Of a DNA stretch of 64,000 nt, positions 4,263-41,727 are shown piece by piece. A program made the translations under genes and the position numbers. A model generated the notes under the pieces. The model saw nothing but the letters and a program-made list of their open reading frames with translations. It did no database searches and was not told the origin of the DNA. Positions within the stretch are counted from its first letter, which is position 1; every line of letters starts with the position of its first letter. Source of the DNA: Candidatus Woesearchaeota archaeon (GTDB taxonomy: Archaea; Nanobdellota; Nanobdellia; Woesearchaeales; UBA119); assembly GCA_030156615.1 (NCBI GenBank), contig JASGME010000001.1, positions 13,881 to 77,880 of the forward strand. Reading direction: 5' to 3'.

Positions 4263-5447
4263 TTAATCCTTGATTATCTTTCCATATTCTCCATCGTAGC
4301 CCGGCTTTATCATTAACCTATCGGATCTTTGAGCTTGAATAAGCTGAGCAATTCCCTTTCCAGCTATGCTTTCAATCTTCTTAATATCTTCAAAAAGCAG
4401 GATATTGTATTCATTGCCTAGATTTCTTATTAGGAATTCATAATCATCAATGACGCTTTTAGTCATAACTCCTTTACCTTTATGAAACGCTATTATTTCC
4501 GCGAGAGGCAGGCTTTTTACAAAAGGATGGCTATGCTCAGGTTTTCCATTGTCTCTATCTGAAAGTTCTTCAACCCTGTTCAATACCCCTATTGTTAAAG
4601 GCCTATGGCATATTGGACATATGCCATCAAGTTCTTTTGTTCTCTCATAAGAGCATGAAAAGTTGCATTTTCTATGGCCGTCAAAATGATATTTTCCGTA
4701 AGCTGGATCCACTTCAAGAGTCAAAACTACTTTCTTCTCTTTTATTGCTTTGATTAAACTATCATAGCTTTTCTCTTCTAAGTCAAACAATGTTGCCTCT
4801 CTTCCAAGACGATGAGGCCAATATGAATGCGCATCTGAGAAAGAGACAAGTTCGTATCTATCAAGAGCAGAGATTTTCCAATTCATCTCTGGATCTGAGG
4901 AAAGTCCTGTCTCAAGAGCATGTATATACTCAGTCATAGAGCCAAAGCATTCTTCAATTGAATCAAATCCTGATTTTGAGCCGAACAATCCAAACCATGG
5001 AGTCCATATATGAGCAGGAATAATCTCCATGGCTTCATCAATTTTCTTCATTTCTTTAACAAACCTTTCTGCATCTAGATTTATCGTAGGTCTTCCATCA
5101 GCTTCAATATTGCAATACAAAGAGAAAAATGAAGCAATTCTTTTAGAGCAGTTTAAAGAAGGCGATAAAAGCAAGAGATGAATCTTTCTAAGTTTTCCTC
5201 CCTTGTTAAAAACCAGATTCACCTCTGTTTGAAGCACGAAATAAAACTCATCATTTGTTTTTAGGAGTCCTTTTTCTTCTTTCAGATTAGATAATTCTTT
5301 AAGCCATCTCGGATGTGTGAAATCTCCTGTGCCGAGCAGGCCAATCCCCTTTTTTAGAACAGAATCCTCGAGATTTTTAAGCGTAATCTTCTTTGATGTC
5401 CCTTTAGAATATCTTGAATGAATGTGAAGGTCTGCAAATATCTTCAT
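4263..5447 (-). CDS. PHP-domain metal-dependent phosphoesterase with a C-terminal Cys cluster, endonuclease Q-like
   Basis: The N-terminus MKIFADLHIHSRYSKG...GLLGTGDFTHP is the PHP motif-I region. A C-terminal Cys-rich segment (HRKCNFSCSYE...CPICHRP) resembles the EndoQ-type Zn finger. Length is 394 aa. Confidence 0.5.
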   Translation of the reverse strand: MKIFADLHIHSRYSKGTSKKITLKNLEDSVLKKGIGLLGTGDFTHPRWLKELSNLKEEKGLLKTNDEFYFVLQTEVNLVFNKGGKLRKIHLLLLSPSLNCSKRIASFFSLYCNIEADGRPTINLDAERFVKEMKKIDEAMEIIPAHIWTPWFGLFGSKSGFDSIEECFGSMTEYIHALETGLSSDPEMNWKISALDRYELVSFSDAHSYWPHRLGREATLFDLEEKSYDSLIKAIKEKKVVLTLEVDPAYGKYHFDGHRKCNFSCSYERTKELDGICPICHRPLTIGVLNRVEELSDRDNGKPEHSHPFVKSLPLAEIIAFHKGKGVMTKSVIDDYEFLIRNLGNEYNILLFEDIKKIESIAGKGIAQLIQAQRSDRLMIKPGYDGEYGKIIKD

Positions 5448-6773: not shown

Positions 6774-8660
6774 TTATTTATTCTTGTCAACACTAAACAA
6801 GAAGTCCACAAGCTCTATGTATGTGCTAGCCGAGAATGCCTGAGCAAATGCTCCGTTGCTTGATTGCTCTTCAGCATCGCTTAGCTCTGATGCATAGCCA
6901 ATTGAATGCTCAAATAAGATGTCGTATGTTGAAGCACTCAGGATCTTTGCTATATATTTTCCATATCTCTTCTTATCAAAATGTCCAAGGACAATTGCTG
7001 CAATATTATTCATGAAATACCATGAATCACCTCTATGATAGCTTGCTGAATCTTCTCCTGTGTGTCTTGAATGAAACAACTTTGATTTCTTTGATATTGT
7101 CGCAAAGCCTCCCCAATCAAGCCATAGCTCATCAAAAGCGTTCGTAAAGCATAGCCTCCACTGATGCTCTTCAAGCAAAGTAGGACAGAAATAATAAGCT
7201 AAAAAGATGTTAGGTCTGAGCCAAGGATTCTTAAGATTGTCAACCAAATACGAACCATTCCAGAATTCTTGCCTCGTCTTGTTTTTAATCTCAGTTGCAA
7301 TTTCGCTGTACTTCTTCTCCGAAGTAAGCCAATTCATTTTTTCAGCAAGATATATTATCATGGCCTGAATTTCTATATTGAATCCTTCCCTTTCATCAAT
7401 CTGATAAACAGAATCCATCCATGTTTCGTTTGAATTTGAATGAATTAGTCCATCCCTTAGATAATATCGTAAAATGGCGTCAAGCTCTCTTTTAGATAGC
7501 TCAATGAATTTTTCCATCTCTTTCTTTTTGAACGGAGCTTTTTTGTTGATTTTATAATCCCCTTCTCTACTTAGGAAAGTATCAAAGATTCTCTTGAATA
7601 TGAATGGAAAAGCATCTATACTGAATATGCCTTCTTTAGCATTCAGATTTGTTTTTATCTTACCATTTATCATCTGACTGAGCATACGAATTGCCAGTTC
7701 CAATCCTTTCTGCTTGTCTTCTTTTAATAGCCAATACAATGAGATTGCTTCATCCCTTGCCCATTCATCATAGAACCAGGGAATTCCTGCCATAATGAAT
7801 CTATTATCTACATTTAATATCTTCATATTTCTCTCCGCGAGTGAGTAAGCAAAATCAAGATGTGGTGATTCTAAGCCATAGTTAGGCAACTGCTCAAGAC
7901 TTTGTTCTAATTTATCAAATTTTGAAAATAATTTCTTTGCCTTTTTAAGAGCATAATCCCTGTTTCTGCTAGGCACAATAACGATTTTATCAGTCCAGAA
8001 AGACAATGGACAATACACATACCTTTTGAAAGGAGGAGAATTTCTTATCATATCATATTCATAATTCATCTCTTTCCATTCATCAATGCTTTTGGAAGAA
8101 CCAGAAAAGGCAATGGCAATAAACAACTCAAATTCCTTCCCGCCCTCACTTTCATCTTCTCTTTTATCTGTTATCTTTTTGAAATGTATTAATGCAATAT
8201 TTCCATTAACTTCATATTCATAAATCCTGCCCCATTCTCTGTTATCAAACACTTTTTTAACATCGAAGTGAGGCTTTACTACTTCATAAGCGTCAAGTTT
8301 TAAAAATAATGCCCTTGCATCTTCTGGCATAAAATAATTTTCTATAATTGATTCATGCTTTAAGCTAACCTTTCTTTTTTCTATGATAGTATCACTAATA
8401 GATTCATCTGCCTCAGGAAGCTCAATTGAATCAATAATCTTAAATAATTGGTTATCTGTAGTGCTGTGCCAAAAGAATCCATCATATCTGCTCTTCAAAG
8501 ATAAAGGTCTTGAAAAGAAACAGCCCCCCTCATCACCTAAAAGAATCCTTGAGTTTTCTTTAGCTTCTACAAATAAACTCTTTTTGTTTCCTTTATATTC
8601 AACATCAATCAATTGAACCACCTCTATAAAATAATGCGGCATCTTCAGGAGCGACAACAT
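6774..8660 (-). CDS. Glycogen debranching enzyme-like (amylo-alpha-1,6-glucosidase, GDE C-terminal (alpha/alpha)6 barrel type)
   Basis: Segments include GIPWFYDEWARDEAISLYWLL, WLRPNIFLAYYF and GDSWYFMNNIAAIVL. Length 628 aa is typical of archaeal GDE_N+GDE_C proteins. It sits in the glycogen cluster. Confidence 0.5.
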   Translation of the reverse strand: MLSLLKMPHYFIEVVQLIDVEYKGNKKSLFVEAKENSRILLGDEGGCFFSRPLSLKSRYDGFFWHSTTDNQLFKIIDSIELPEADESISDTIIEKRKVSLKHESIIENYFMPEDARALFLKLDAYEVVKPHFDVKKVFDNREWGRIYEYEVNGNIALIHFKKITDKREDESEGGKEFELFIAIAFSGSSKSIDEWKEMNYEYDMIRNSPPFKRYVYCPLSFWTDKIVIVPSRNRDYALKKAKKLFSKFDKLEQSLEQLPNYGLESPHLDFAYSLAERNMKILNVDNRFIMAGIPWFYDEWARDEAISLYWLLKEDKQKGLELAIRMLSQMINGKIKTNLNAKEGIFSIDAFPFIFKRIFDTFLSREGDYKINKKAPFKKKEMEKFIELSKRELDAILRYYLRDGLIHSNSNETWMDSVYQIDEREGFNIEIQAMIIYLAEKMNWLTSEKKYSEIATEIKNKTRQEFWNGSYLVDNLKNPWLRPNIFLAYYFCPTLLEEHQWRLCFTNAFDELWLDWGGFATISKKSKLFHSRHTGEDSASYHRGDSWYFMNNIAAIVLGHFDKKRYGKYIAKILSASTYDILFEHSIGYASELSDAEEQSSNGAFAQAFSASTYIELVDFLFSVDKNK

Positions 8661-9567
8661 TTACATAACTTCCACTAAGCTCAACCCCTCCCCAGATTGA
8701 TAACCTGGGATGAATCTCAATATGCAAATGGAGATTTAAATTTTTTGGACTTTGTATCAATTCTATATTATAAGGACTGTTAAGCAGTTTAAGTTTTTTA
8801 AGTATGAATAAAATGTGCTCTGACAATTCATCAAAATTTTGTTCAATTTCCTCAAGGAATCTAACATGTTTCTTTGGAAATATTAATGCTTCATAGTTGT
8901 TTATAGATGCATATGGAGTAAACGAAACAAAGTTTCCAGTTTCAATAATTCTCCTCGCTGAGTTTCTTTCAATGCTGATAATACGACAATATTCACAACT
9001 TCCATAGCGATTACTCTTTATTGTCTTTTCATAAATCTCTTTAGGAATATGATTCATTCCGATTATTTGCGAATGAGAATGAGCCAAGGAAGTTCCTGCT
9101 TCCTTTCCATGATTCTTGAATGGCAATACATACCTTATTTTATCATTTTGATACACTCTCCTGCTTTCTGACATAAAGACTCTAAGCAGATTTGAAACCC
9201 TCCAGATGTCAGAATCCCAAAGTTGCATATTGTGTTTTGGCATTTCTACAACAACTTCATGAATACCAAATGCATTTGAATATGCAAAGAAGTTATCATC
9301 TGTGTTGATATCAGCTTCTCCATCTTCTTTCGTAATAGGAAATTTATTCTCAAACCAGCGTAATTCCCATCCATCATTTCCATTGATTCTCCCTATCTCT
9401 GGAGGCGTCATTCCTTCGTTGCCTCTGCAAAAAGGACAATTCTCATTGTACTCTTTTTCTTCTATTGTTTCGTTTGATTTGGGATTTACAAAATCCTTAG
9501 GCCTTCTGGATCTGTTTGTAGCAATAAATACAAACCTGTCCAGCAGATAATCTTTTCTTAGTTCCAT
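8605..9567 (-). CDS. galT: Galactose-1-phosphate (hexose-1-P) uridylyltransferase, HIT superfamily
   Basis: Zinc knuckle CPFCRGNEG is followed by the HIT-type motif HSHSQI (H-x-H-x-Q). Confidence 0.7.
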   Translation of the reverse strand: MELRKDYLLDRFVFIATNRSRRPKDFVNPKSNETIEEKEYNENCPFCRGNEGMTPPEIGRINGNDGWELRWFENKFPITKEDGEADINTDDNFFAYSNAFGIHEVVVEMPKHNMQLWDSDIWRVSNLLRVFMSESRRVYQNDKIRYVLPFKNHGKEAGTSLAHSHSQIIGMNHIPKEIYEKTIKSNRYGSCEYCRIISIERNSARRIIETGNFVSFTPYASINNYEALIFPKKHVRFLEEIEQNFDELSEHILFILKKLKLLNSPYNIELIQSPKNLNLHLHIEIHPRLSIWGGVELSGSYVNVVAPEDAALFYRGGSID

Positions 9568-9618
9568 TTTTGATTTCTCCTGCTTTAATCTTAATTAATC
9601 TTTTTTTATTTTCCAGTT

Positions 9619-11403
9619 TTATCTATTCTTTTCAATTCTTTCAATAGCAAGCTGATGAGCCTTGAAATACTTCTTAATTAATTCACTCCAATCTGCTTTC
9701 TCAGATGCATTCTTAGCCTTCATCTTCATAGCAATTCTCTCAGAAGAATTCATGCTTGAATATTTTTCCATTGCTTCAACGAGAGCGTTCACCCTGTCTT
9801 CATAACTCTTTCCTTCAAAATTAAGTACAAAAACTCCTTCTCCTTCAAGTTTTTGTTGTCTGATGAATCTGCCGAAACCTGCCAGATCTGTTGTTATTGT
9901 AGGGACACCAAAAGACATAGATTCAAGAGGCGTATATCCCCAAGGTTCATAAACAGAAGGGAAGATAGAAAGATGACAGGCAGATATCGCTTCAAAGTAA
10001 TCCAAATCGAGCAATCCATCAACTCCTTTTAGATAAGTCGGATAAAATATTACCTTAACCTTATCATCAAATGCATTATTTAGGTTATTCTCTCTCAAAG
10101 ATGTTAAAATTAAATCAGATTTATTCTTTATAATATGCGTACAACATGCAGGATTTTCATTGCTTTTAATTATCGATTTTACCCGTTCAAACTTATTGTA
10201 AAAATCATCTCCTATTATCTGTTTTATACTAAGTTTTTTTGGAGAGAATAATGAGTAGAATAATCTCTGCTTGATTTCATTTGAATTCTCTGCCAGAGAT
10301 TCTTCTAAATCCTCAAAATAGCTCTTTCTTTGTATTATTTCCTTATTTACTGATTCATATTCTGCTGGAATAAAAAAGAATACAAATATGTTTTTATCAA
10401 TCTTTGAGTGCTTTAATTTTTTGTTTAATTTACCTAAGGCGTCAATAAGGACATTTATTCCTTTTGAATAAAATTCATATCTGCCTGATACAAAGAATTG
10501 TAAGCTCTTTTCTAAGTCTACAGCATAATGAGGGTAAAACATTGTCATTAAGAAGTTTCTCATCTTCTCTCTGAATAACCTGTGTTTTACAGATGCTTCT
10601 TCAAATGTTGGAAACATGTTTGAATCAAGGCCATTTTCAACAATAACATCCGGCTCCCTTTGAAGAATAATCTTTGCTTCCTCCCCTGTAATCTCGCTAA
10701 CAGTTGTGAAAACATCTGAGTTTTGTGCTGTTGCCTTTTCTGTTTGATGCTTTGCATGTATGTTAAATTCTCTTGCCTTCTCATCAAAATTCATGCCAGA
10801 TTTAAAGAAGAAGTTCAAGTCATGTTGACTACCTGCCAATGCCCTTCCCATAACAGTTGCATGTGTTGTGAAGACACAGCCTGCTTCCGATTTCTTGGCC
10901 TTAAGATATAGAAGCCCGGCACCACTTAGCCATTCGTGGAAGTGAGCAACTATCCTTTTTTCAGGCATATTCTTTTGAATACTTTCAATAAATCTCCCTG
11001 CTATATTTGCCCACAGCACAGGATAATCATAATCGTAAAAATCTGTATTTAATGAATCAACCTGAAAATGTTCCCAGTTGAATCCCTTAACCTCGTTTGC
11101 AAGATGAAGACAATTGTTTATGTCTATCAAAACGACCTCTGGAGTTCCAAAAGTGTGCCAATGCCCAAAGTGGGCTACAGCCCCCAACTTAAGAAGTTCA
11201 GACATGCTTTCTTTAATCCATTCTGGAGGCTCCTCTTCAGCAAATTCTCCCTTTACCTTATCAGGAAGGTATGGACCAATTAATAAGTATTGATTTCCAT
11301 ATTCTACTTTCATCTGCACAATCTTTGATTGAATTACCCTGTAGATTCCCCCTACTTTATTGCAGACCTCCCAGCTTACCTCAAACAACATATCTGGTTT
11401 CAT
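9619..11403 (-). CDS. Glycogen (starch) synthase, eukaryote-like GT3 family
   Basis: The N-terminus LFEVSWEVCNKVGGIYRV matches the GT3 glycogen synthase signature EVAWEVANKVGGIYTV. Length is 594 aa. Confidence 0.65.
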   Translation of the reverse strand: MKPDMLFEVSWEVCNKVGGIYRVIQSKIVQMKVEYGNQYLLIGPYLPDKVKGEFAEEEPPEWIKESMSELLKLGAVAHFGHWHTFGTPEVVLIDINNCLHLANEVKGFNWEHFQVDSLNTDFYDYDYPVLWANIAGRFIESIQKNMPEKRIVAHFHEWLSGAGLLYLKAKKSEAGCVFTTHATVMGRALAGSQHDLNFFFKSGMNFDEKAREFNIHAKHQTEKATAQNSDVFTTVSEITGEEAKIILQREPDVIVENGLDSNMFPTFEEASVKHRLFREKMRNFLMTMFYPHYAVDLEKSLQFFVSGRYEFYSKGINVLIDALGKLNKKLKHSKIDKNIFVFFFIPAEYESVNKEIIQRKSYFEDLEESLAENSNEIKQRLFYSLFSPKKLSIKQIIGDDFYNKFERVKSIIKSNENPACCTHIIKNKSDLILTSLRENNLNNAFDDKVKVIFYPTYLKGVDGLLDLDYFEAISACHLSIFPSVYEPWGYTPLESMSFGVPTITTDLAGFGRFIRQQKLEGEGVFVLNFEGKSYEDRVNALVEAMEKYSSMNSSERIAMKMKAKNASEKADWSELIKKYFKAHQLAIERIEKNR

Positions 11404-11451
11404 ACGCAGACCTCCAGTTATCCTCTTCCTTGGGCTTTTAGTTATTGCCCT

Positions 11452-11826
11452 CTATATTTTTAACCTATTCACAAGTTCTTTCAAAATTTCAACCTCTATT
11501 TTTAGAGGATTCCTAAATCCTACTATCCTTTGTGCTAATTCTTCTTCATGGAAAACATCCTTAAGCCAGTTAAAGAAGTCATTCCTTTCATCATTTACAT
11601 GATAATAGAATACATCATCATTCATTGTTTCTAAAGCATCAATTAAGTCATAGATGTTCTTAAGCACAAGACCATCGCATAGAAGGAAATATTCCTCTGG
11701 CTTAATCTCTTTCAATAGCCCTTTTTCCTTAACCTTTTTTGAACTCTCTTTTTTTGTATTTTTTTTAGCACTTTTTTTCTTTGTTTCAGTTTTACCCTTT
11801 TGTTTGTTTTCTTTCTTTTCTGCCAT
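11452..11826 (-). CDS. Small protein with a Lys-rich N-terminal tail and an acidic/aromatic C-terminal domain; function unknown
   Basis: MAEKKENKQKGKTETKKKSAKKNTKKESSKKVKEK... is followed by YFLLCDGLVLKNIYDLIDALETMNDDVFYYHVN. It is embedded between glycogen genes on the same strand. Confidence 0.3.
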   Translation of the reverse strand: MAEKKENKQKGKTETKKKSAKKNTKKESSKKVKEKGLLKEIKPEEYFLLCDGLVLKNIYDLIDALETMNDDVFYYHVNDERNDFFNWLKDVFHEEELAQRIVGFRNPLKIEVEILKELVNRLKI

Positions 11827-11855
11827 CTTCCCACCTCATTTATTCCTTACATATT

Positions 11856-13088
11856 TTATTCAGATATCTCTATTGATTCTTCATTTACATTCAATTCATT
11901 TTTTTCAGAGCTCTTTTCATTTTTAATTCTTTCTTTGATATCTGAAAAGATGTTCATGAAATAGATATATGCTTCGTACGGCGTATCATAAGGATTGAAA
12001 TATTTATGTACATCACCATCGTTGAAATATTTTGTGCACATATAGTAAAAATGATCAGATGTTTGAATCTTTCTCCAGTTTTCAATAAGTTCTTTGTTGC
12101 CACTATCTTTTACCATCTTCTCTATCTCATATATCTTCTTTAAGGCATCCTTCTGCATTGAATTACCTTGCCAGGCAGATAAATCTCTTTCAGTATCAGC
12201 CCAAGAGAGATAAAATGGACAATCAATAATCCCTTTTGGTTTTAATCTTGAAATCGCATCAGTTGGATTCAGGAATGAATAGCCCTTTTTAATTCCAAGC
12301 TCAATGAAATGCCTAAAAAAATCAAAGATGCCTGTCTCACGCCATTGATGTTCTCCAAAAGTTTCGTAATCCATAAATAAACCAATTATATCTGAGTTTC
12401 CATTAAGTCTATCTATCCAATCACTATATTTTTCTGCTGTCAACGGCCATTCCTTCCAGCCTCTTTCTGAGAATCTAAATGCAATATCATCAGAAAGCTG
12501 GAAATTCTTAAGCAATACCTTTATATTTTGATCTTTGTTAAGATATAAAAAGTTTGGAGATCTGTTTTTTAAAATAGATTGAGCTCCTTCTGCCAGCATC
12601 CCTTTGAAACCTTTCTTGGCTGCAAAGTCCGCTATCCAATCAGAATAGATTAGCTCAGTGTTTCTAAAGCATGATGGATCTTTTCCAAACTCGCTCCTAA
12701 TCAGTTCTCTATGCATCTCAATCTGTTCATTGAATTCATCAATTGAATGAAGGAAGGATAATGAATGATAATATGTCTCTGAAAGAAATTCAACGTTTTC
12801 TGATGAACCTATTTTCTTTAAGAGATAATAAGTGTTTGGAAAGTAACGCTTTGCTTGCTCAATGAAGACACCTGAGAAACTGAATGCTACTTTAAACTTC
12901 GGATATCTTTCAATCAAATCTAAAATCATCCTTGTTGTAGGAATATAACTTTTTTTAGAAACCTTCTCCATAATCTCATAATTTTTCTTTTCATCAAAAT
13001 AAGCAGTAGTCCTACCTATGTCAAATATCCTGTATCTTTTCAACCTGAAAGGTTGATGTAACTGAAAGTAAAAGCATATGTTTACCAT
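11856..13088 (-). CDS. Glycoside hydrolase family 57 (alpha-amylase / 4-alpha-glucanotransferase / branching-type)
   Basis: The N-terminus ICFYFQLHQPFRL (HQP motif) and the (beta/alpha)7 region pattern support GH57. It is adjacent to the glycogen synthases. Confidence 0.6.
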   Translation of the reverse strand: MVNICFYFQLHQPFRLKRYRIFDIGRTTAYFDEKKNYEIMEKVSKKSYIPTTRMILDLIERYPKFKVAFSFSGVFIEQAKRYFPNTYYLLKKIGSSENVEFLSETYYHSLSFLHSIDEFNEQIEMHRELIRSEFGKDPSCFRNTELIYSDWIADFAAKKGFKGMLAEGAQSILKNRSPNFLYLNKDQNIKVLLKNFQLSDDIAFRFSERGWKEWPLTAEKYSDWIDRLNGNSDIIGLFMDYETFGEHQWRETGIFDFFRHFIELGIKKGYSFLNPTDAISRLKPKGIIDCPFYLSWADTERDLSAWQGNSMQKDALKKIYEIEKMVKDSGNKELIENWRKIQTSDHFYYMCTKYFNDGDVHKYFNPYDTPYEAYIYFMNIFSDIKERIKNEKSSEKNELNVNEESIEISE

Positions 13089-13160
13089 CTTTTCATCATC
13101 TTTTTTGTTTTATTCATTTAAAAATCTTTTTAATTATTAATTTTATTTCTTCTTTCTTTT

Positions 13161-14396
13161 TTATTCTTTCAAAACTTCTTCATATATTCTTTTGCATTCT
13201 TCAGCTCTTGAATCCCATGTTATTTGCTGTACTTCCATGACTCCATGTTCTGAGATTGTTTCTTTTAATGTTTTATATCTCAATATAGCAACAACCTTGT
13301 TTGTTATCTCATCTAAATCCCAAAAATCAACCGTTAATGTATTTTTAATTATCTCAGAAACGCCAGACTGTTTTGAGATTACAGTTGGGGTTCCATTTGC
13401 CATGGCTTCCAAAGGGGTAATTCCAAAAGGCTCTGAGACAGAAGGCATAACATAAACATCTGCCCTTCCATATATCTCATCTATGCTAGGACCTGTTAGG
13501 AAGCCAGTGAAAAACACCTTATCAGAGATTCCAAGAGCAATTGTTTTCTCAATAAGCTGAGGCATCATCTCTCCTGATCCAGCGATAAAAAATTTTGTAT
13601 TTGGTTCAAATTCAAGTATTCTCTTTGCAGCATCAATAAAATACTCCGGCCCTTTTTGTATGGTTAATCTACCTAAGAAAAGCACTACATTATCATTTGA
13701 AAAAACCTTTACTGGCTTATTTGCCTTAATATTATCAGGAAAATCAACTGCGTTATAAAGCACTCTCACTTTAGATTCAGGAATTCCATATTTGCTTACA
13801 ACCATTCTTTTTGTATAATTGCTTACTGCAATAATCAAATCGCTTTTTTCAAATCCTTCCTTTTCTATAGCATAAACAGTTGGATTTGGGAAACCGCCCG
13901 TCCTATCAAATTCAGTTGCATGTATATGCAAAACAAGCTTTTTTCCAGAATCTTCCTTAACCTTTATCCCTGCAGGATATGTCATCCAATCGTGTGCATG
14001 AATCAAATCAAACTTAAGATTCTTTGCTAGCATTCTTACCTTCTCGCTGTATATATAAACCTCTTCAAAGAGGTTCCTCCCATAAATTGCGTCATCATTT
14101 GATCCTTTTATTGCTTTCTTGTTCATCTCAGTTAATCTTTTCTGCTCTGGCGATGCATAAGGAATCAAAGGAGAATCAATGAAATATGCTTTAAGATGCG
14201 AATAATCAATTCCCTCATTGACCTTTGCATTAATCAAATTGAGAAATGAACTTGAAACTGGAATAGGACTTTTTGGAATTACAAAAGAGATTCTTACGCC
14301 AAGCTTACTCAATCCCCTTGTTAACCCAAAGCAGGCGGTTCCAAGTCCTCCGGTTTTATATGGAGGAAACTCCCACCCAAGCATCAAGATATCCAT
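13161..14396 (-). CDS. glgA: Glycogen synthase, GlgA-type (GT-B, GT5/GT4-like)
   Basis: The N-terminal signature is EFPPYKTGGLGTA (the K-T-G-G-L motif of bacterial/archaeal glycogen synthases). A C-terminal GT-B motif is PSVSEPFGITPLEAMANGTP. Confidence 0.7.
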   Translation of the reverse strand: MDILMLGWEFPPYKTGGLGTACFGLTRGLSKLGVRISFVIPKSPIPVSSSFLNLINAKVNEGIDYSHLKAYFIDSPLIPYASPEQKRLTEMNKKAIKGSNDDAIYGRNLFEEVYIYSEKVRMLAKNLKFDLIHAHDWMTYPAGIKVKEDSGKKLVLHIHATEFDRTGGFPNPTVYAIEKEGFEKSDLIIAVSNYTKRMVVSKYGIPESKVRVLYNAVDFPDNIKANKPVKVFSNDNVVLFLGRLTIQKGPEYFIDAAKRILEFEPNTKFFIAGSGEMMPQLIEKTIALGISDKVFFTGFLTGPSIDEIYGRADVYVMPSVSEPFGITPLEAMANGTPTVISKQSGVSEIIKNTLTVDFWDLDEITNKVVAILRYKTLKETISEHGVMEVQQITWDSRAEECKRIYEEVLKE

Positions 14397-14535
14397 TTTC
14401 CCCTTTCATCAAATATTCTTAAAGATTCTTCAATAAATATTGTTTTAAACTTTCTTGATTACTTTTGAGTAATACTAAGAAGAAATCAGAATAAAAATCA
14501 ATTTAATTGAAGAAAAATTTAGAACTGAGAATTCT

Positions 14536-20596: not shown

Positions 20597-21115
20597 ATGA
20601 TCATTTCAACTAAAGAGGGGGATAAAGGAAAAACAAAGATTATTAATGGAGAAGAGTTTTATAAAGACATTCCAATATTTGAAGCCATTGGAACAATAGA
20701 CGAATTAAATTCTTTTCTTGGTGTAGCCCGCCTAAAAACCTTTTTGTTCAGGGATGAGATAAAATACATTCAAACCAATTTGATTAAGATAAATGGTTAT
20801 ATAGCTCTTGGTCATGAAATCTTCAAAAAAGATGTTGAAAGTTTTTTTGATTGGCTTGAAAATGAAACTAGAAATAATGAGGAATCAATAGAGGTAAAAG
20901 AATTTATTATCTTTGGTGATGAGGAAGCATCATCTTGGCTTGATGTTTGCAGGACAATATGCAGAAGATGTGAGCGAAGGATAGTTTCTTTAATTCACAC
21001 AAAGGACAATAAAGAACTAGAGAATAAAGAATTGTCAATATTAACAAAGATATTCAATAGATTGTCAGATTTACTATTCATATATTCTATCCATGAATTG
21101 AATAAAACAAAATAA
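20597..21115 (+). CDS. ATP:cob(I)alamin adenosyltransferase, PduO/MMAB type
   Basis: The N-terminal motif ISTKEGDKGKTKI corresponds to the PduO-type signature (I/Y)T(K/R)xGDKGxTSL. The protein is about 170 aa and helical. Confidence 0.65.
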   Translation: MIISTKEGDKGKTKIINGEEFYKDIPIFEAIGTIDELNSFLGVARLKTFLFRDEIKYIQTNLIKINGYIALGHEIFKKDVESFFDWLENETRNNEESIEVKEFIIFGDEEASSWLDVCRTICRRCERRIVSLIHTKDNKELENKELSILTKIFNRLSDLLFIYSIHELNKTK

Positions 21116-21139
21116 TAAATAAAACAATACCTAAGAGCT

Positions 21140-23854
21140 TTAACCTACAGTGCAGGCACTCCAGCCACAATTATGACAAACCTTGCATCCTGATTCTGAT
21201 GTTAATTTGCTCCCGCATACCGGACACCTTTCTTCGTCATCTTTTATCTTATCTGTCTGTTTGCTTTCTTTTGTTTGCCTTGCTTGTTGTTTTCCTTCAT
21301 TCTCTTGCTTTTCTTTGCTCTCATTATTCACAAAAGAACCTAAGCTTTTGTTCAATCCCTCTGATTCTAAAATCTTTTGAATGTCAAGCAGTGTTGCAAA
21401 CCTCAAATTAGATTCATAAAGTTTTTTAAGAAGAGCTTTAGAATAATTTGAAGGCTTAATTATTTTATTTCCTTCTTTGCTAGAATCGACATTCAGCACC
21501 TGACCATACTTGCTTCCATCTCTATAAACTGTTACACCTTTGCAATTAAGTTCATGTGCAATGAGGTATGCATTTTTGATATCATCAACGCTAGAATCTT
21601 TTTTCATGTTTATTGTTTTGCTTATACTATCTGTAATCCATCTTTGCATCTCTGCTTGAGCAACTAAATGGTCAAGCCAGTGCAAATCCATTGCTGTAAC
21701 ATATATCTCTTTAAGATCATCAGGCAACTCATCAATTCCCTGCAAACTCCCTCCATTAGTGCTTATCTTCTTTAACATCTCTTCGCTATGAAGACCTCTA
21801 AGTTTAAGTTCTTCTTCAAATACAGGATCAACATAAAAGAAGTTTCCTACAGTTACATTCTTCTCAAAAACAATTGCAAATATTGGCTCAATCCCGCTAG
21901 TTGTGTCTGCAATCATACTCACAGAACCAGTAGGGGGAGATGTAGAAACCATTGCATTCCTGACGCCTTTCTGAGATATCTGTTTGGCAAGATCTTCCCA
22001 GTTTAATGTCCATAGCTCTTTCTGATAAAAACCTTCGATAGGAAGATCCCCTTTTGTATAATTGCTTTTCTTAAATAGAGGGAATGCTCCTCTTTCTTCT
22101 GCAATCTTCATTGATTCAAAATATGCATAGTATGTAAGATGTTCGCTGACCTTCCTCATAAATTTAAAGCCTTCTTCACTATTATACTTAACCTTCATCA
22201 TGAAGAGTGCTTCTGCTAAGCCCATCATGCCAACTCCAATCCTTCTTGTTAATTTTGTCGCTTTTTTTATCTTCTCAAGAGGATATCTATTTATCTCCAT
22301 CATATTGTTAAGATATCTTGTCACTTTCCTTACAATACCATGAAATTCATCCCAATTGAATTTTCCATCTTCAACAAACTTGCTTAGATTGATGCTTGCA
22401 AGGTTGCACGATTCGTTTGGATAAAGAGGTTCTTCTCCACAGGGATTTGTTACTCTGATTTTTTCTCCAATTGCTGGCTCGAGAACATTTCTTTTGTTTA
22501 TATTATCAAAAAACAATACTCCTGGATCAGCAATTGACCACGCATAGTAAGATATTAAATCAAATAGCTCTCTTGCATCCTGCTTTTTTACTTCTTCTCC
22601 TGTTCTTGGATTCTTAAGAGGATATTTCTTTCCTTCGTATAATGAATTCCAGAAGTATTCCCATATCCCTGCAGAGATATTGAAGTTTGATAACATTCCA
22701 TCTTTCTCCTTTGCTTTAACAAAATCAATAATATCCGGATGCCAATCCTCTAATATTCCCATATTGGCACCTCTTCTAACGCCGCCTTGTTTTATCACAT
22801 CTGAGACAGCATCAACTAATTTCATGAATGATATAGGACCTGATGAGACACCTTTCGTAGAATCAACCACATCGTCTTTTGGTCTTAGTTTTGAGAAATT
22901 TATTCCAGTTCCCCCTCCACATTTCTGGATTATTGCAACATCATGACAAAGTTCCATTATGGATTCCATATCGTCTTCTACATTTAATGTAAAGCATGCT
23001 GAGAGCATTCCTAGTCTTCTTCCTCCATTGATTAGAGCAGGAGTGTTTGGCATAAAACATTTCTTGCTTAATAATTCAAAAGCCTCGTCAATCATAGATC
23101 CATACTTGTTAAAATAGCCATCTTCAATTAGCTTTAAGAAATCATCGACAGATAGTTTAATATGTCCTTCTTCTTTTTGTTCCTTAAATAGCTCAAGCAA
23201 CTGTTCAAACATATAACGATTTATCTTGTATTTCCCTATTGAATATCTAGAATCAAAATCTTCTGATGAAGCAATCAGTTCATCTATCCTCTTTACATCG
23301 TCTTTTGAGTTTGTTTCGCTTGGTTCTTTTGAATACACCTTTTCATCAAATACAAGCTCTCCTAAGATAGAGACGATGCTTACTCTCTCAAAAAGCTCCC
23401 GAGGCCTTTCAACAATCTCATTATTCTCATTCTTAATTAAATATCTTGAAGCCAATACGCGCAATGCACTAAGTGAGAATGATTTTTCTATATCATCTAA
23501 TTCTTTTACATTTAACACTAATCTTTTTTCATTTCTTATATCTGCTTTCTTTTTTCTATAAAGAATGAATGCCTTAGCAACATCAAAAAGATTATTTCTC
23601 ATTAAAGAAATCTCAATGATATCCTGAATCTCTTCTACATTCGGTTCTTTATCTTTTAATTGTTTTTCTATAAGGTTTAATGCATCATTTACAACTTTGT
23701 TCAATAATTTTTCATCAGCTTTGTTCTGTGCAAGCATTGCTTTCCAAATTGAATTCTTGATTCTTGCAACATCAAACTCTGTTCTTGAGCCTGTCCTTTT
23801 GATAACCATCTTTGGCAAGTTTCTCGTCTCTTTTTTTTCCATTTTCAACCCCAC
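21140..23854 (-). CDS. nrdJ: Ribonucleoside-diphosphate/triphosphate reductase, class II (adenosylcobalamin-dependent) with N-terminal ATP-cone and C-terminal Zn-ribbon
   Basis: ATP-cone is VIKRTGSRTEFDVARIKNSIWKA. Active site is VTNPCGEEPL. The C-terminal ribbon is CPVCGSKL...CKVCHNCGW. Length is 904 aa. Confidence 0.8.
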   Translation of the reverse strand: MGLKMEKKETRNLPKMVIKRTGSRTEFDVARIKNSIWKAMLAQNKADEKLLNKVVNDALNLIEKQLKDKEPNVEEIQDIIEISLMRNNLFDVAKAFILYRKKKADIRNEKRLVLNVKELDDIEKSFSLSALRVLASRYLIKNENNEIVERPRELFERVSIVSILGELVFDEKVYSKEPSETNSKDDVKRIDELIASSEDFDSRYSIGKYKINRYMFEQLLELFKEQKEEGHIKLSVDDFLKLIEDGYFNKYGSMIDEAFELLSKKCFMPNTPALINGGRRLGMLSACFTLNVEDDMESIMELCHDVAIIQKCGGGTGINFSKLRPKDDVVDSTKGVSSGPISFMKLVDAVSDVIKQGGVRRGANMGILEDWHPDIIDFVKAKEKDGMLSNFNISAGIWEYFWNSLYEGKKYPLKNPRTGEEVKKQDARELFDLISYYAWSIADPGVLFFDNINKRNVLEPAIGEKIRVTNPCGEEPLYPNESCNLASINLSKFVEDGKFNWDEFHGIVRKVTRYLNNMMEINRYPLEKIKKATKLTRRIGVGMMGLAEALFMMKVKYNSEEGFKFMRKVSEHLTYYAYFESMKIAEERGAFPLFKKSNYTKGDLPIEGFYQKELWTLNWEDLAKQISQKGVRNAMVSTSPPTGSVSMIADTTSGIEPIFAIVFEKNVTVGNFFYVDPVFEEELKLRGLHSEEMLKKISTNGGSLQGIDELPDDLKEIYVTAMDLHWLDHLVAQAEMQRWITDSISKTINMKKDSSVDDIKNAYLIAHELNCKGVTVYRDGSKYGQVLNVDSSKEGNKIIKPSNYSKALLKKLYESNLRFATLLDIQKILESEGLNKSLGSFVNNESKEKQENEGKQQARQTKESKQTDKIKDDEERCPVCGSKLTSESGCKVCHNCGWSACTVG

Positions 23855-23977: not shown

Positions 23978-25282
23978 TTATAAGGTCGGATTGACAACTT
24001 TCCCAAGAAATAAGATAGCTCCTGTCTCTTTTTCTTGTATAATAAAGATAAAAGGATGATCTGCATTAAATATCTTCATGTTCCTTGGCATAGCAGTTTC
24101 TACCATACCAACAGCGGTTGCAGCAGCAGCTTCAGTTCCTTCTTCATCAACATTAACGTAGGCCTGATGGATTACCTGATTAATAAACAGATTTCTTTTT
24201 CCGTCAATACCTGAAAAATCAGCATCGCTAGAAAATGCACTATGCATTCCCATTGCACTTAATACTTCTTTCATAAAATATTTTGTATCAAACTCAAATT
24301 TTGGAACTGAAATTGAATCTAACTTTGTTTTTTTCATATGAGCTTTATATTCATTTAGTTTCTCAGCAGAAAGTTCTATATCTCCAAGAGTATAATTATA
24401 AACAATTATTTCTTCAGTTTCATAATCATACGTTTCTCCTTGTTTTGGTAATAATATTAACATAGAAATGTTTTCTCCTTTATATGGTAATTCCAAAATT
24501 TGCAGTTTTTCTAATTCAGCATAATTAAATTCAGTCTTATCCGGATCCATATGCATCATTTGAATTTTTACAACCTCTTTTGGGGTGATTTTAAAATCCT
24601 TCTCTTTTGTATCTGACTTGTCAAACTCCCATTCCCATGTTCCTTTAAAATAAATAGCATTTGTAAGAACCAATCTTGTCAATTCGTTAATAGCTCCTTC
24701 AGGTATTAAATCTTTAATTTTGCCATTGGTTTGTTCTTCAATAAAAGAATTGATAGTTTGTATAGATTTTTCTGGTTCTCTGACAAAATCAACATTTACT
24801 GCTTTTCCTCCATAATATCTCTCTACTATGTTTAGATAATCATCAAGGAACGGATAATCTTGTTGAACCCATAAGGCATTTCCAGTTTTTAATTCATATT
24901 CTTTGTCTTCTTTATTGATGTTGTTATAAATTGCAGCAAAATTAGCTCTTAAAGTGTCAACTTCAGGGAAATGAAGAACTGATTCCATTTCTTCTGCTGT
25001 CTCTCCTTTTGCACCTTCATAAGTCATTGCTAAAGCTGAAAAAATACTATAAGGAGAATAAAAGATATTTCCTGTTTCAGATTGCTCTAATTGGTAATAT
25101 AAATCAAAAGCAAATTGATTTACGGCATTAACAACTTCTTGAGTTCCATATTGCGTTGCATTTGTATCATCAGCCTTTGGTGGTTGATCTGGTTGATATG
25201 GAAAGAGGAATAGTAATCCTGTGGCACTTACCGCACTTATGATAATTAGCACAAATATAATTATTAATATTTTTTTACTCAT
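23978..25282 (-). CDS. Serpin (serine protease inhibitor), membrane-anchored/secreted
   Basis: N-terminal signal-anchor is present. The hinge/RCL is VDEEGTEAAAATAVGMVETAMP. The C-terminal serpin signature is FNADHPFIFIIQEKETGAILFLGKVVNP. Confidence 0.8.
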   Translation of the reverse strand: MSKKILIIIFVLIIISAVSATGLLFLFPYQPDQPPKADDTNATQYGTQEVVNAVNQFAFDLYYQLEQSETGNIFYSPYSIFSALAMTYEGAKGETAEEMESVLHFPEVDTLRANFAAIYNNINKEDKEYELKTGNALWVQQDYPFLDDYLNIVERYYGGKAVNVDFVREPEKSIQTINSFIEEQTNGKIKDLIPEGAINELTRLVLTNAIYFKGTWEWEFDKSDTKEKDFKITPKEVVKIQMMHMDPDKTEFNYAELEKLQILELPYKGENISMLILLPKQGETYDYETEEIIVYNYTLGDIELSAEKLNEYKAHMKKTKLDSISVPKFEFDTKYFMKEVLSAMGMHSAFSSDADFSGIDGKRNLFINQVIHQAYVNVDEEGTEAAAATAVGMVETAMPRNMKIFNADHPFIFIIQEKETGAILFLGKVVNPTL

Positions 25283-26986: not shown

Positions 26987-28453
<1,467 letters not shown>

Positions 28454-28509
28454 TTTTTTATTTTCATCTTTCGGGACAGCCCCCTTATATTCCTTTTTTG
28501 GGGATGTAA

Positions 28510-28583
28510 GGGCCTGTAGCTCAACTTGGGAGAGCGTCGCCTTTGCAAGGCGGAGGCTTCGGGTTCAAATCCCGACGGGTCCA
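28510..28583 (+). tRNA. tRNA-Ala (anticodon TGC) in the 16S-23S spacer; no encoded CCA
   Basis: Manual fold gives acceptor gggcctg/cgggtcc with the G3:U70 Ala identity pair, anticodon loop ttTGCaa, and T-loop ttcaaat. Confidence 0.85.
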
Positions 28584-28689
28584 TTTTAGTCGTAGTTCGA
28601 TACCGCAAGATATCGGATGGTAGGCCGATCCTCTTTTAGAGGTGCTTGATTCATTTTATCAAGTTATTTTGATGAGGCCAATCATAGGA

Positions 28690-31615
28690 GACTGGAAAAC
28701 AGGATAGATAAGATTCTACTAAGCCATCAGATGGATGACTTGGCTTGAGAAGCCGATGAAGGACGTGGCAAGCTGCGAAAAGTCTCGGGGAGTTGCATGC
28801 AGACCTTGATCCGAGAATTTCCTAATGGGACTTCCTGTTCCTTCGGGAACACTCCTTTTGGAGGGGGAACGCGGAGAATTGAAACATCTTAGTATCCGCA
28901 GGAAAAGAAATCAATTGAGATGTCGTAATTAGGGGCGACCGAAAGCGACGAAAGGCAAACTGAATCTCTTATAGCAATATAAGAGAGATGTGGTGTTTCG
29001 GCTATCTTGATTTCTTGTATGTCTAACTTAAGTCTTCTGGAAAGAAGCACCATAGAGGGTGATAGTCCCGTAAGAGAAAGCATGCAAGAATGTGATAGTA
29101 CCGAGAGTAGCGTCTATTGGATATTAGGCGTGAATATGGGGGACATTAACCTCTAACCTTAAATACTTCTCAAGTCCGATAGCGAAATAGTACCGTGAGG
29201 GAAAGTTGAAAAGAACCCTTGGCAGGGTGTGAAAAGAGCCTGAAATCTGATGGTTATACCGGGATAGGGCACTATGTGTGTTCTATCGTACGTTTTGAAT
29301 AACGGGCCAGGGAGTATATCTATGTGGCGAGAATAACCTTCTATGAAGGGGATTCGTAGGGAAACCGAAAAGTTCGCAGCAATGCGAGGAACTGAGTTTT
29401 AAAATGCTCGGAGTCACGTGGATTAGACCCGAAACCGCACGATCTACGCCTGAGTAAGGTGAAGCGAGGGTAAAACCTCGTGGAGGCCTGCAGAGGTGCT
29501 ATGGACAAGTGCTCTTCTAACTTGGGTGTAGGAGTGAAATGCCAATCGAGTGCGGATATAGCTGGTTCCAGCCGAAATTGGCCTAAGTCAAGCCTCGAGG
29601 GAGATGTCTTATGTGGTAGAGATACTGATAGGAGATTTAGGGGGAGAAATCCCTCGGTTTTCTGTCAAACTCCGAATGCATAAGAGTCGTAGATCTCGGG
29701 AGACGGGGGCAGGGGGTAAACTCCTGTTCCAAGAGGGGAACAACCCAGACTCTAGTTAAGGTCCCAAAATGTTGACTAAGTGCGAAAGGCCAAAAGGTGT
29801 CTATCTCCTAAGACAGAGAGGAGGTTGGCTTAGAAGCAGCCATCCTTTAAAAAGTGCGTAACAGCTTACTCTTCGAGGGGGTAGGCCCTGAAGATCGACG
29901 GGGCTAAGTCGACTACCGATACTAGGGATATGCCAAAAGCATATGATAGGCTGGCGTTCTATAAGGGCGGAATCATCTCTTCAAGGAGATGTGGACCTTA
30001 TAGAATTGAAAATCCTGGCAGTAGTAGGATCTAAGCAGGGTGAGAGTCCTTGCCACCGAAAGGGCTAGGGTTCCTTGACAATGCTGATCAGTCAAGGGTT
30101 AGTTGGTCCTAACCGGCGACCTAACAGGTTAGTCCGGGAAAGGGAAACAGGTTAATATTCCTGTACAATCTGGATATCCGGCAACGAAAGATCTTTTTTC
30201 GACGGTTCAGGGTAGACATAGACAAGCTGTCGCTTGTTTCAAGGGGTATAAATCTTTGGAGTATCGTAATGATGAGAAAAAGATGAAAACTCCGATGAGC
30301 ATCCGCGAGGGTGTTATGTTGATCCCAGGACTCAGTGAAAAGAGAAAAGATATAGATTCCAGATTGCCATACCGAGATCCGACACAGGTGCCCCTGGGTG
30401 AGTAGCCCAAGGTGTGCGGGTGATAATCCAGTCGAGGGAAGTCGGCAAATTAGTCCCGTACCTTCGGAATAAGGGATCCCTGAGATTGTTCTCTTAAGAG
30501 TGCAACCTCAGGGCTCAGTGACAAGGGGGATCCGACTGTTTAACAAAAACATAGCCAACTGCTAGTTCGAAAGGATTTGTATAGTTGGTGAAGTCTGCCC
30601 AGTGCCAGTACTTTAAACTTCGGTTCAACGGAGCGAAGAGCTGGTAAACGGCGGGAGTAACTATAACTCTCTTAAGGTAGCGTAATACCTTGCCATTTAA
30701 ATAATGGCTTGCATGAATGGCGTAACGAGATCCCCACTGTCCCCGACTGGAAACCCCTGAACTTCCTGTACTGGTGTGGAGGCCAGTGTCTTCCAGTGGG
30801 ACGTGAAGACCCCGTGAAACTTTACTGTAGTCTGTGGTTGAGGAGCGAGTTTTGATGTGCAGGCTAGGTGGGAGTTGTTGAGGCTTGGCCGTCAGGTCAA
30901 GTGTAGACGAAAGATGAGAAACCACCCTTCAAGACTCACTTCTCTAACTAACATTTTGTTAGGACACCCATTGATGGACAGTTTGACTGGGGCGGTACTC
31001 CGCTGAAAAGATATCAGTGGAGCCCAAAGGTTGGCTCATTCGGATTGGAAACCCGAAGTTGAGTGCAAAGGCAAAAGCCAGCCTGACTGAATCCTAGACA
31101 AGGAAGGATTCAGAAACGAAAGTTTGGCTTAGCGAACCTCTATCTCTCCTTAATGGGGGGTAGAGATGACCGAAAAGTTACTCCGGGGATAACAGAGTTG
31201 TCTCTCCCGAAAGTCCATATTGACGGAGAGGCTTGCTACATCGCTGTCGGCTCTTCCTATCCTGGCCGTGCAGAAGCGGCCAAGGGTGGGGGTGCTCACC
31301 CATTAAAAGGGATCGTTAGCTGGGTTCAATACGCTGTGAGGCAGTATGTTTAATATCTACTGGAAGTGTTTATGGTCTGATGGGAAGAACCCTCTAGTAC
31401 GAGAGGAACGAGGGATCGAGGCCTCTGGTCTATCGGTTGTCTGACAAGGCAGGCCGAGCAGCTACGCCTTAGGGGATAAGTGCTGAAAGCATCTAAGCAC
31501 GAAGCCCTCCTAGAAAAGAGACCAAGGACACGGGAAGAAGACCCGTTTGATGGAACTGGCGTGTAAGCATCAAGCCTTCGGGCGAGGTGTTCAGCGCGCA
31601 GTCCCCAACAGTCCG
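28690..31615 (+). rRNA. rrl: 23S ribosomal RNA (archaeal), boundaries approximate
   Basis: The 5' region has gccgatgaaggacgtggcaagctgcgaaa. The sarcin-ricin loop context is agtacgagaggaac. The 3' region has ctgaaagcatctaagc. No 5S follows. Confidence 0.85.
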
Positions 31616-31763
31616 ATTTATCTTATCACTTTTTTCAGTCTCCTATGGTTTTAGCCTCTTTTTTTCTTTCACTTTTTTCTTTTCTTTTTCTTTTTTATCA
31701 AATTCCATTTAGAATTCCATTTATGGAAAGACTTAAATAAAATGATTTTAATTCTTTAAATCT

Positions 31764-35876: not shown

Positions 35877-35878
35877 AT

Positions 35879-41542: not shown

Positions 41543-41727
41543 AACTTTAATAGAAAATGATAGTTTTTAAGATTTACTAAAGAATTGATATTCAATGATC
41601 CAAGAATGTTTGGATTCTTAATACTATTCCTCATCGGTTTTCCAGTAAGGTCTTATTCCTGTTTCAGAGGGATAATAACCATCTCAAACAAAATACAAAG
41701 CAATCTATTAGAATCCTTCGAGATTTT

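Follow-up and report, generated by a model that had tools for sequence, protein, structure and literature searches.

Glycogen gene clusters are known from several groups of archaea. According to the cited passages of a recent review (Chem Rev 2024, PMC11046441), glycogen synthases of family GT3 occur in DPANN archaea and in some Euryarchaeota, GH133 is widespread in archaea, clusters of GT4, GH133 and GH57 genes are known, for example in Picrophilus, and the GH57 'amylases' are suspected to be the missing archaeal branching enzyme. Of 123 complete Woesearchaeales genomes, 68 (55%) carry K00693 (bioRxiv 10.64898/2026.05.13.725050). Here we describe a six-gene island at positions 6774-14396 of a 64,000-nt stretch of DNA from a Candidatus Woesearchaeota archaeon (assembly GCA_030156615.1, contig JASGME010000001.1, positions 13,881-77,880); this whole stretch is called the window below. 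We consider it probable that the region is a glycogen (α-glucan storage) island of this DPANN archaeon, built from two conserved modules. The locus is an ordinary one for the lineage, common in DPANN and in bacteria of the candidate phyla radiation (CPR), and known in outline.

The closest described systems are the GT3 clusters of DPANN and Woesearchaeota covered by the same review, which share with the window island the GT3 family and clade, the closest homologues (45-72% identity) and the company of GH133 and GH57-amylase genes. The cited passages of that review raise the same question about the GT4 enzyme as arises here, and they do not mention the two-module layout, a GalT-family gene after GT3, a DUF5752-type gene or the sharing with CPR. 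Regarding the clusters of other archaea, the Sulfolobus one (GlgA–GH57-amylase–GH133–GH15) and that of Picrophilus torridus (GT4–GH133–GH57) resemble the window island, likened by gene families alone, in having a GT-B transferase, a GH57 and a GH133 enzyme in one locus (PMC11046441, cited passages). Nevertheless, the window island differs from these TACK and Thermoplasmata clusters because it adds GT3 and a GalT-family enzyme and because no GH15 is seen in the window.

The six ORFs are consecutive and co-directional on the minus strand, as the original prediction had described, and an ORF check of the window found each of them at the coordinates given below. Read from 5' to 3', the genes encode a transferase at the border of GT4 and GT5, a GH57 enzyme, a small lysine-rich DUF5752-like protein, a GT3 glycogen synthase, a histidine triad (HIT) enzyme of the GalT family and a GH133 glucosidase. 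The intergenic gaps are 72, 29, 48, 51 and -56 nt, the last value being the overlap of the annotated GH133 start with the GalT-like gene. The layout is operon-like and the six genes probably form one transcription unit. The island is flanked by SRP54, 139 nt upstream, and by a tRNA-guanine transglycosylase gene, 141 nt downstream. The 139 nt between SRP54 and the first island gene (14397-14535, minus strand) are AT-rich and are presumed to hold the promoter, and a GGGG-containing stretch resembling a ribosome-binding site lies immediately 5' of the ATG of the first gene. A scan for promoters and terminators gave no excess over shuffled sequences, with a bacterial sigma-70 model that is the wrong one for an archaeon. 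The window is archaeal, has a GC content of about 34% and carries a 16S–tRNA–23S operon at 26987-31628.

We assigned families by Pfam and NCBIfam scans with curated cut-offs, and we searched the PDB by phmmer and with family profiles. The island contains a bona fide GT3, a glucosidase of the GH133 type, which is the C-terminal type of the glycogen debranching enzyme (GDE), and a GH57 enzyme, all of them with Pfam matches far above chance, and these three calls of the original prediction stand.

The GT3 glycogen synthase (9619-11403, minus strand, 594 aa) is the first gene of what we call module B. It matched PF05693 (Glycogen_syn) with 447.2 bits (cut-off 27, E 1e-133), its residues 8-590 covering profile positions 1-586 of 639. 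Human GYS1 aligned with it over the full length (368.5 bits, residues 5-589 against 28-615), and so did yeast Gsy2p and C. elegans gsy-1 (343 bits each, residues ~5-590). The eukaryote-like signature EVSWEVCNKVGGIYRV occupies residues 8-23, and the product is a GT3 enzyme and not a member of a non-glycogen GT-B family. The catalytic E-x7-E, R/K pair and HFHEW motifs are kept, and E157, R308, K314, E486 and E494 are invariant in 22 DPANN sequences; presumably these residues have the roles of their counterparts in Gsy2p. Two basic contacts of GYS1 with the phosphate of glucose-6-phosphate (Glc6P) are retained (R582 as R556, R586 as K560), whereas the phospho-sensing R579, R580, R588 and R591 are changed to S, S, K and N (PMC9287172 for contacts and roles). 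Furthermore, the window protein spans only GYS1 28-615 and has none of the phosphorylated N- and C-terminal tails. With the core and the catalytic residues intact, and the tails and most of the sensing arginines gone, this is therefore a genuine GT3 core without covalent regulation of the eukaryotic style, for which sensitivity to Glc6P would be possible. Thus, compared with the eukaryotic glycogen synthases (GYS1, Gsy2p; CAZy GT3), the window enzyme shares the full-length GT-B core, the catalytic motifs and both Glc6P-phosphate contacts, but lacks the tails, has four sensing arginines swapped, has no glycogenin partner in the window and is only 33% identical to GYS1. We predict it to be the main α-1,4-glucan elongating enzyme of the island.

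The identity of the window GT3 was 33-36% to the sequences of the PVC/FCB bacteria and 37-71% to those of DPANN. An exact-sequence look-up of the product gave no identical record; at least 7995 homologues were found at E ≤ 1e-10 (8000 candidates scored), and the best named ones, among the matches listed, are Woesearchaeota and Nanoarchaeota proteins annotated as 'glycogen/starch synthase'. In a rough neighbour-joining tree the window sequence fell within a large DPANN/CPR clade and human GYS1 fell on the PVC/FCB side. A eukaryotic origin of this GT3 was rejected on that placement.

The GH133 glucosidase (6774-8660, minus strand, 628 aa) had a single Pfam match, PF06202 (GDE_C), with 73.2 bits (cut-off 21) at residues 288-614; residues 1-287 matched nothing in Pfam. 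A phmmer search of the PDB with this protein found nothing, and a profile of 20 family members found eukaryotic GDE glucosidase domains only (5D06/5D0F, 7EKU, 8ZEQ; E 1e-6). The Asp of the GDE motif TWMD, which we take to be the catalytic D1241 of C. glabrata, aligns with D416, and D416 is invariant in the 20 family members. E592 is also invariant in the family; the alignment to the PDB entries ends before the region of the second carboxylate (C. glabrata E1492). Since the family profile matched no GH15 or GH63 structure, a generic glucoamylase-like enzyme of these families is not what we see, and the GDE C-terminal type is upheld by the GDE_C match above cut-off and by the conserved catalytic Asp. 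Compared with the eukaryotic GDE (Candida glabrata Gdb1, human AGL; GH13_25 + GH133), the C-terminal (α/α)6 glucosidase domain is homologous, but only this glucosidase part aligns and the 628-aa protein has no N-terminal GH13-type 4-α-glucanotransferase domain. Any transferase step would have to come in trans, and the GH57 enzyme is a candidate for it.

This GH57 enzyme (11856-13088, minus strand, 410 aa) matched PF03065 (Glyco_hydro_57) with 249.5 bits. Its E145 does not vary in the family and stands in the alignment opposite E123, the nucleophile of the T. litoralis 4-α-glucanotransferase (1K1W); D240, in MDYETFGEH, a candidate for the acid/base Asp of conserved region 4, is invariant as well and lies outside the part that HMMER aligned to the solved structure. 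Actually, 1K1W was the sole PDB match of the family profile (29 bits), phmmer gave none, and the solved GH57 branching enzymes were matched neither by phmmer (E ≤ 0.001) nor by the family profile (E ≤ 1). The characterised GH57 branching enzymes, of the T. kodakarensis, T. thermophilus and P. horikoshii type, have at least 500 aa against 410 aa here. By these comparisons the protein classifies as a divergent short GH57 of amylase- or transferase-like type, and not as a recognised branching enzyme. A role in chain transfer or branching is nonetheless what we would infer, because the gene is tightly paired with the transferase gene. In Sulfolobus acidocaldarius a GH57 mutant loses its glycogen and a GH133 mutant over-accumulates it (PMC11046441, cited passages), and by analogy the former phenotype suggests a similar role for the window GH57.

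The first gene of module A encodes a transferase of 411 aa (13161-14396, minus strand), which matched Glycos_transf_1 (123 bits), Glyco_transf_4 (83.4 bits) and, with a lower score than the latter, Glyco_transf_5 (PF08323, 69.3 bits, cut-off 22.7, residues 3-203). It stayed below all the NCBIfam cut-offs, with 95.7 against 328 for TIGR02095 and 57.7 against 459 for NF001899, both models of glgA, and 112 against 302 for TIGR02149, the model of GlgM. The top PDB match of its family profile was the GT4 enzyme GlgM (6TVP, 119 bits), and the GT4 enzyme 2JJM, the glycogen synthase (GS) of P. abyssi (GT5) and BshA followed only marginally lower, with ~105 bits each; the P. abyssi match ranged from 57 to 105 bits depending on the search. 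The motifs KTGGLG (residues 14-19), HAHDW, GRLTIQKG and EPFG…E are present. However, the family consensus is GWEFPPxxxGGLG, K14 and T15 vary among the orthologues, and so the catalytic-Lys position of KxGGL is not conserved. The original prediction had named this gene a GlgA-type synthase after KTGGLG; the motif is there, but membership of GT5 is not established, given the missed cut-offs, the higher score of GlgM and the variable Lys. We place the protein among the retaining GT-B enzymes, where GT4 and GT5 border on each other, and regard it as a candidate α-glucan synthase or initiator, for which the label of glycogen synthase is plausible only from its context. In the related loci its gene is always followed by GH57.

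The second gene of module B encodes a class I GalT-family HIT nucleotidyltransferase (8605-9567, minus strand, 320 aa; PF01087 GalP_UDP_transf, 47.7 bits). It has HSHSQ at residues 163-167 and a CPFC zinc site at 44-47, and H163, H165 and Q167 are invariant among 15 orthologues. The H-x-H-x-Q motif and the family of the proposed GalT are therefore right, but its identity as the GalT of the Leloir pathway is not supported, because the NCBIfam galT models fell below cut-off (TIGR00209, 77.3 against 102.1; NF008724, 99.5 against 448) and because the closest solved relative is At5g18200 (1Z84; 146.7 bits, E 9e-42, 34% identity over 311 positions), with residues 2-316 aligned end to end to its residues 24-347. 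E. coli GalT scored 40.9 bits, and the E. coli and human GalT together span 34-41 bits. At5g18200 (1Z84, 2H39) and the window enzyme share an ELRKD…RP N-terminus, CPFC, FKNxG and HSHSQ; on the other side, At5g18200 is a plant enzyme of unclear physiological role and the phosphorylase specificity of the archaeal protein is a prediction. The equilibrium constant of the ADP-glucose phosphorylase reaction is reportedly about 5-40. In the cited passages of PMC6329318, which refers to McCoy 2006, At5g18200 is an ADP-glucose phosphorylase and not a GalT, and its reaction, ADP-glucose + Pi <-> ADP + glucose-1-phosphate, is reversible. The adjacency of this gene to GT3 had been read as fitting the use of UDP-glucose; with an ADP-glucose phosphorylase as the nearest solved relative, it is no specific argument for that donor. 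Regarding its neighbours, neither GalK nor GalE turned up in the Pfam scan of 46 window ORFs, which took in the whole island and 40 of the remaining ORFs with 110 aa or more, or in the 25 families shown as recurrent neighbours. The slot beside the GalT-like gene holds a phosphoglucomutase/phosphomannomutase (PGM/PMM) gene in two related loci (L012, L024) and a nucleotidyltransferase of the glucose-1-phosphate type in five (L021, L025, L029, L033, L036). The neighbourhood of the GalT-like gene is thus one of glucose-1-phosphate, NDP-glucose (nucleoside diphosphate glucose) and glycogen.

The small ORF between GH57 and GT3 (11452-11826, minus strand, 124 aa) is K-rich, as had been noticed, with 18 K in an N-terminal tail of 46 residues and a pI of 10; an acidic helical DUF5752-type unit follows. 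The tail is probably disordered. The match to DUF5752 was marginal (25 bits, cut-off 23) and covered only profile positions 131-189 of 208, and a precomputed PF19027 match is recorded for an identical protein. The ORF is a real gene: a hypothetical protein with the same sequence (100% identity) is on record for a metagenome-assembled genome of Candidatus Woesearchaeota (PWQ87_24), and of the 17 related loci with full flanks, 10 have the ORF in the same place behind GH57. The DUF5752-type family has 4437 cluster representatives (P0127-P0275 among them). Its unit of ~70 residues, with the core motif F…G…L…M…F…HVN…NDF…W…DV, is often duplicated; in other proteins it is joined to ATPase domains, HerA-like (DUF87/HerA_C) or KaiC-type, and to CarboxypepD_reg repeats. 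We had considered the domain as glycogen-specific, and we rejected this because the family is very large and fused to such domains; it is an uncharacterised promiscuous module. An AlphaFold2 model of the protein had a mean pLDDT (predicted local distance difference test) of 62.5, a Foldseek search with it found no match below E = 1 in the PDB, and the literature search found no paper on DUF5752.

In order to see how far the island is spread, we scanned a genome collection with an alignment of GT3 sequences, which led to 80 loci among the matches listed, and searched these by tblastn with the six window proteins. A relative of GT3 was encoded by 599 of the first 600 pattern matches listed. A scan with a single GT3 protein as the query gave no confirmed relative, whereas the alignment query succeeded. 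The window locus itself recurs in several metagenome assemblies. The identical six-gene order was found in L001, L003 and L086, and in L001 and L003, whose GT3 proteins are 71% and 49% identical to that of the window, SRP54 also lies upstream. Two modules can be told apart: module A, GT4/5–GH57–small ORF, always in this order, and module B, GT3–(GalT-like)–GH133. The counts refer to 41 DPANN/CPR loci, with denominators given by the loci with enough flank. Within 10 kb of GT3, GH133 was present in 20 of 35 loci, and GT4/5 and GH57 each in 11 of 17 fully flanked ones; the remaining 6 of these 17 had no GT4/5 gene within that distance. The GT3 genes of Planctomycetota and Bacteroidota (PVC/FCB) stand alone. 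Apart from the nucleotidyltransferases and PGM/PMM genes mentioned above, GH15 (4 ORFs) recurs as an extra island gene.

The island is also found in CPR bacteria (L015, L020, L022, L027, L031, L032 and L043, beside the DPANN loci of the series L001-L047), one of them the complete Parcubacteria genome AP024681.1 (L043). The CPR islands read GT4/5–GH57–GT3–GH133, sometimes with the GalT-like gene. In the rough tree most of the CPR GT3 sequences nest inside the DPANN ones, which suggests inter-domain transfer between two ultra-small lineages. Two further genes were seen beside related islands. A winged-helix (HTH_24) gene of ~190 codons stands beside GT4/5 in L010 (4603-5175), L028 (6881-7462) and L046 (5793-6365), in the first two between GT4/5 and GT3; its product is a candidate local regulator, with no counterpart inside the window island. 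His_Phos_1 genes lie downstream of GT3 in L005, L006 and L019, immediately after it in L006, and the window has two such genes in tandem, with a HAD hydrolase gene, at 41728-44070 (minus strand), hinting at a sugar-phosphate phosphatase or mutase tied to glycogen metabolism.

Regarding the supply of the sugar donor, no NTP_transferase, GT35, GH15, GalK/GalE or GT8 was present among the 46 window ORFs scanned, GlgC, GalU and GT35 were not found in the 64-kb window, and glycogenin (GT8, Glyco_transf_8) was also absent from the 25 recurrent neighbour families shown. At the end of the window (62967-64000, plus strand) lies the N-terminal part of a GlmM-like phosphohexomutase gene that runs past the window end, and in the 99% identical contig L088 (6761-9490) the mutase gene is followed by one for a bifunctional enzyme of the archaeal GlmU type, a sugar-1-phosphate nucleotidyltransferase/acetyltransferase (TIGR03992, 436 bits). 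No other enzyme that forms sugar nucleotides was seen near the island, and a genome without any sugar-1-phosphate nucleotidyltransferase, which we had considered, was rejected on finding this one. The pair resembles that of UDP-GlcNAc synthesis more than it does GlgC or GalU. Archaeal GlmU-type enzymes can be promiscuous (ST0452 is an example), and one of them could make UDP-glucose.

In the storage island that we favour, GT3 would elongate α-1,4 chains from NDP-glucose, and the HIT enzyme would interconvert NDP-glucose and glucose-1-phosphate, in either direction, through a covalent nucleotidyl-His165 intermediate, tying the donor pool to glucose-1-phosphate and not to the Leloir galactose pathway. 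GH133 would remove the α-1,6-linked glucose stubs during breakdown. The GT4/5 and GH57 pair, similar to the archaeal 'GT + GH57-amylase' pairs, would most likely add α-glucan synthesis, as a second activity or as the initiating one, together with chain transfer or branching, and the small DUF5752-type protein may be an accessory or adaptor. Several points weigh against this reading. The archaeal GT3 enzymes are biochemically uncharacterised according to the cited passages of the review (PMC11046441), the GH57 enzyme has no close characterised relative in the PDB searches, and the GT4/5 sequence fits a GlgM-like maltose-1-phosphate synthase or a non-glucan GT4 equally well. The next-best relative of the HIT enzyme is a verified archaeal GalT, that of P. 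aerophilum (6K5Z, 91.6 bits). The HIT gene lies directly downstream of GT3 in only 15 of 39 related islands (38%), so that the enzyme is best described as accessory, and it is not anticorrelated with the island nucleotidyltransferases, since 2 of the 5 loci with such a gene have both (L021, L029); it is therefore not simply the donor-supplying step. Likewise, we downgraded the idea that it replaces an NDP-sugar pyrophosphorylase, the co-occurrence being about what independence predicts. Finally, the part of the genome in view amounts to about 84 kb, and GlgC/GalU, GT35, GH15 and GalK/GalE may lie elsewhere.

A reading along the lines of the original prediction has two true glycogen synthases here, GT3 and a GlgA of GT5, which would use UDP-glucose and ADP-glucose or divide priming from elongation, with a Leloir GalT feeding UDP-hexose. 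We hold this to be possible, if rather doubtful. The GT3 enzymes of eukaryotes depend on a primer, the scanned window ORFs include no glycogenin (GT8), and the second transferase does carry a Glyco_transf_5 N-domain (69 bits) and does match the P. abyssi synthase; but its shortfall against TIGR02095, the rank of GlgM above GT5 by family profile and the variable Lys of KxGGL speak otherwise. Both transferases occur together in 11 of 17 fully flanked loci, although the other six, and the PVC/FCB bacteria, have GT3 without GT4/5 within 10 kb. The HIT enzyme shows the HxHxQ and CxxC motifs of the GalT family, yet it missed the galT cut-offs, has an ADP-glucose phosphorylase as its nearest solved homologue and has neither GalK nor GalE as a neighbour in the ORFs and families covered. 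A different account would make GT3 and the HIT enzyme a pyrophosphorylase-independent shuttle, a two-step link between glucose-1-phosphate and glycogen that is catalytic in NDP and would serve NTP-sparing synthesis or a phosphorolytic mobilisation in place of a missing GT35 phosphorylase. The two genes are adjacent and close, the nearest characterised HIT homologue converts ADP-glucose and Pi reversibly, in L012 and L024 the gene after that for the HIT enzyme is PGM, and with no GT35, GlgC or GalU in the window the sole nucleotidyltransferase nearby is of the GlmU type, with a GlmM-like mutase. However, the HIT gene occurs alongside island glucose-1-phosphate nucleotidyltransferases in L021 and L029 and is missing from most GT3 islands, the view of the genome is confined to ~84 kb, a promiscuous GlmU-type enzyme could make UDP-glucose, and the reversal of glycogen synthase is thermodynamically demanding; we consider the shuttle unlikely. 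We give as little credit to its extended form, in which the HIT enzyme is an NDP-glucose phosphorylase and GT4/5, GH57 and the DUF5752-type protein make up a glycogenin-independent system of initiation and branching. If true, the shuttle would give energy-poor symbionts an ATP-sparing synthesis of glycogen or a two-enzyme substitute for glycogen phosphorylase.

The product may also not be a store at all. The island, or module A alone, could make, for example, an α-glucan that is secreted or placed at the surface, or else maltose-1-phosphate, maltooligosaccharides or a glucosylated compatible solute, and the hydrolases would then act on starch or glycogen derived from the host. The best profile match of GT4/5 is GlgM, followed by GT4 enzymes of the BshA/MshA type that act on small acceptors, DPANN are host-dependent, and in metatranscriptomes the GH57, GH133 and GH15 of Woesearchaeota have been read as degrading starch or glycogen (PMC11606122). 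Against this, inspection of the six proteins by eye showed no clear signal sequence at the N-terminus and no clear transmembrane segment, the islands have no GlgE-type maltosyltransferase, and the linkage to a GT3 with intact catalytic residues is tight, which makes a non-storage product quite improbable. Much further down we place a recent acquisition of the GT3 and GDE genes from eukaryotes, which has next to nothing in its favour beyond the families themselves, GT3 and GH133 being those that eukaryotes use, and the full-length alignment to GYS1. The identity to GYS1 is equal to that with the PVC/FCB GT3, the window sequence lies inside the DPANN/CPR clade, the homologues number at least 7995, 599 of the first 600 matches listed encode a relative, and GC content and gene context are those of the host genome. 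The 'eukaryotic toolkit' of the original prediction is not borne out either, because the window has no glycogenin, the GDE has no glucanotransferase half and the GT3, which branches with DPANN/CPR, has no phospho-tails.

If the conservative reading, that of a storage island, holds, this is a further instance of a Woesearchaeal glycogen pathway that is already known, with little new in it. It does raise the questions of how GT3 is primed without glycogenin and of which enzyme branches glycogen where only GH57 'amylases' exist, and a compact, widely conserved operon provides a defined set of five enzymes and one small accessory protein with which to address them. Besides the priming of GT3 and the role of GH57, the remaining interest lies in the misnamed 'GalT', an enzyme that annotation pipelines and readers are prone to assign to galactose metabolism, and in the sharing of the island between DPANN and CPR, which would be a further example of gene flow between ultra-small lineages.

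Some other features of the window are worth recording. A PIG-L protein is encoded at its start, for which an exact-sequence look-up gave no record. The gene at 4263-5447 (minus strand) encodes a protein of 394 aa with a PHP-like motif, DLHIHS, at the N-terminus and with CxxC…CxxC; the protein had no Pfam-A match in our scan, but for the identical gene of L085 a precomputed match to PF27218 (MJ0043_C) exists, and it is possibly endonuclease Q-like. At 20597-23854 the gene for the large chain of a ribonucleotide reductase (904 aa, with an ATP-cone) adjoins that for a PduO-type cobalamin adenosyltransferase, a gene pair consistent with a B12-dependent class II ribonucleotide reductase. A full-length serpin of 434 aa (Pfam Serpin, 406.7 bits) is encoded at 23978-25282 (minus strand); serpins are patchy in archaea. 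At 33684-38182 (minus strand) a T2SSE-type secretion or pilus ATPase (767 aa) adjoins a 730-aa protein with one sub-threshold Pfam match, and a similar ATPase lies at L002:3786-6059, a few kb from GT3 in the complete Woesearchaeota genome CP070803.1. The GC content dips to 28-29% at 38001-42000, against about 34% elsewhere, in a part that includes a 388-aa ORF with a weak N-terminal match to MetRS and a Polbeta/NTP_transf_2 nucleotidyltransferase gene. Finally, a ~3.3-kb segment (54137-57481), between genes for a SepF-like and a PIN-domain protein, is missing in the 99% identical contig L088 and is therefore a strain-variable insertion; it holds two ORFs without a Pfam match, at 54168-55409 (413 aa) and 55406-57421 (671 aa).

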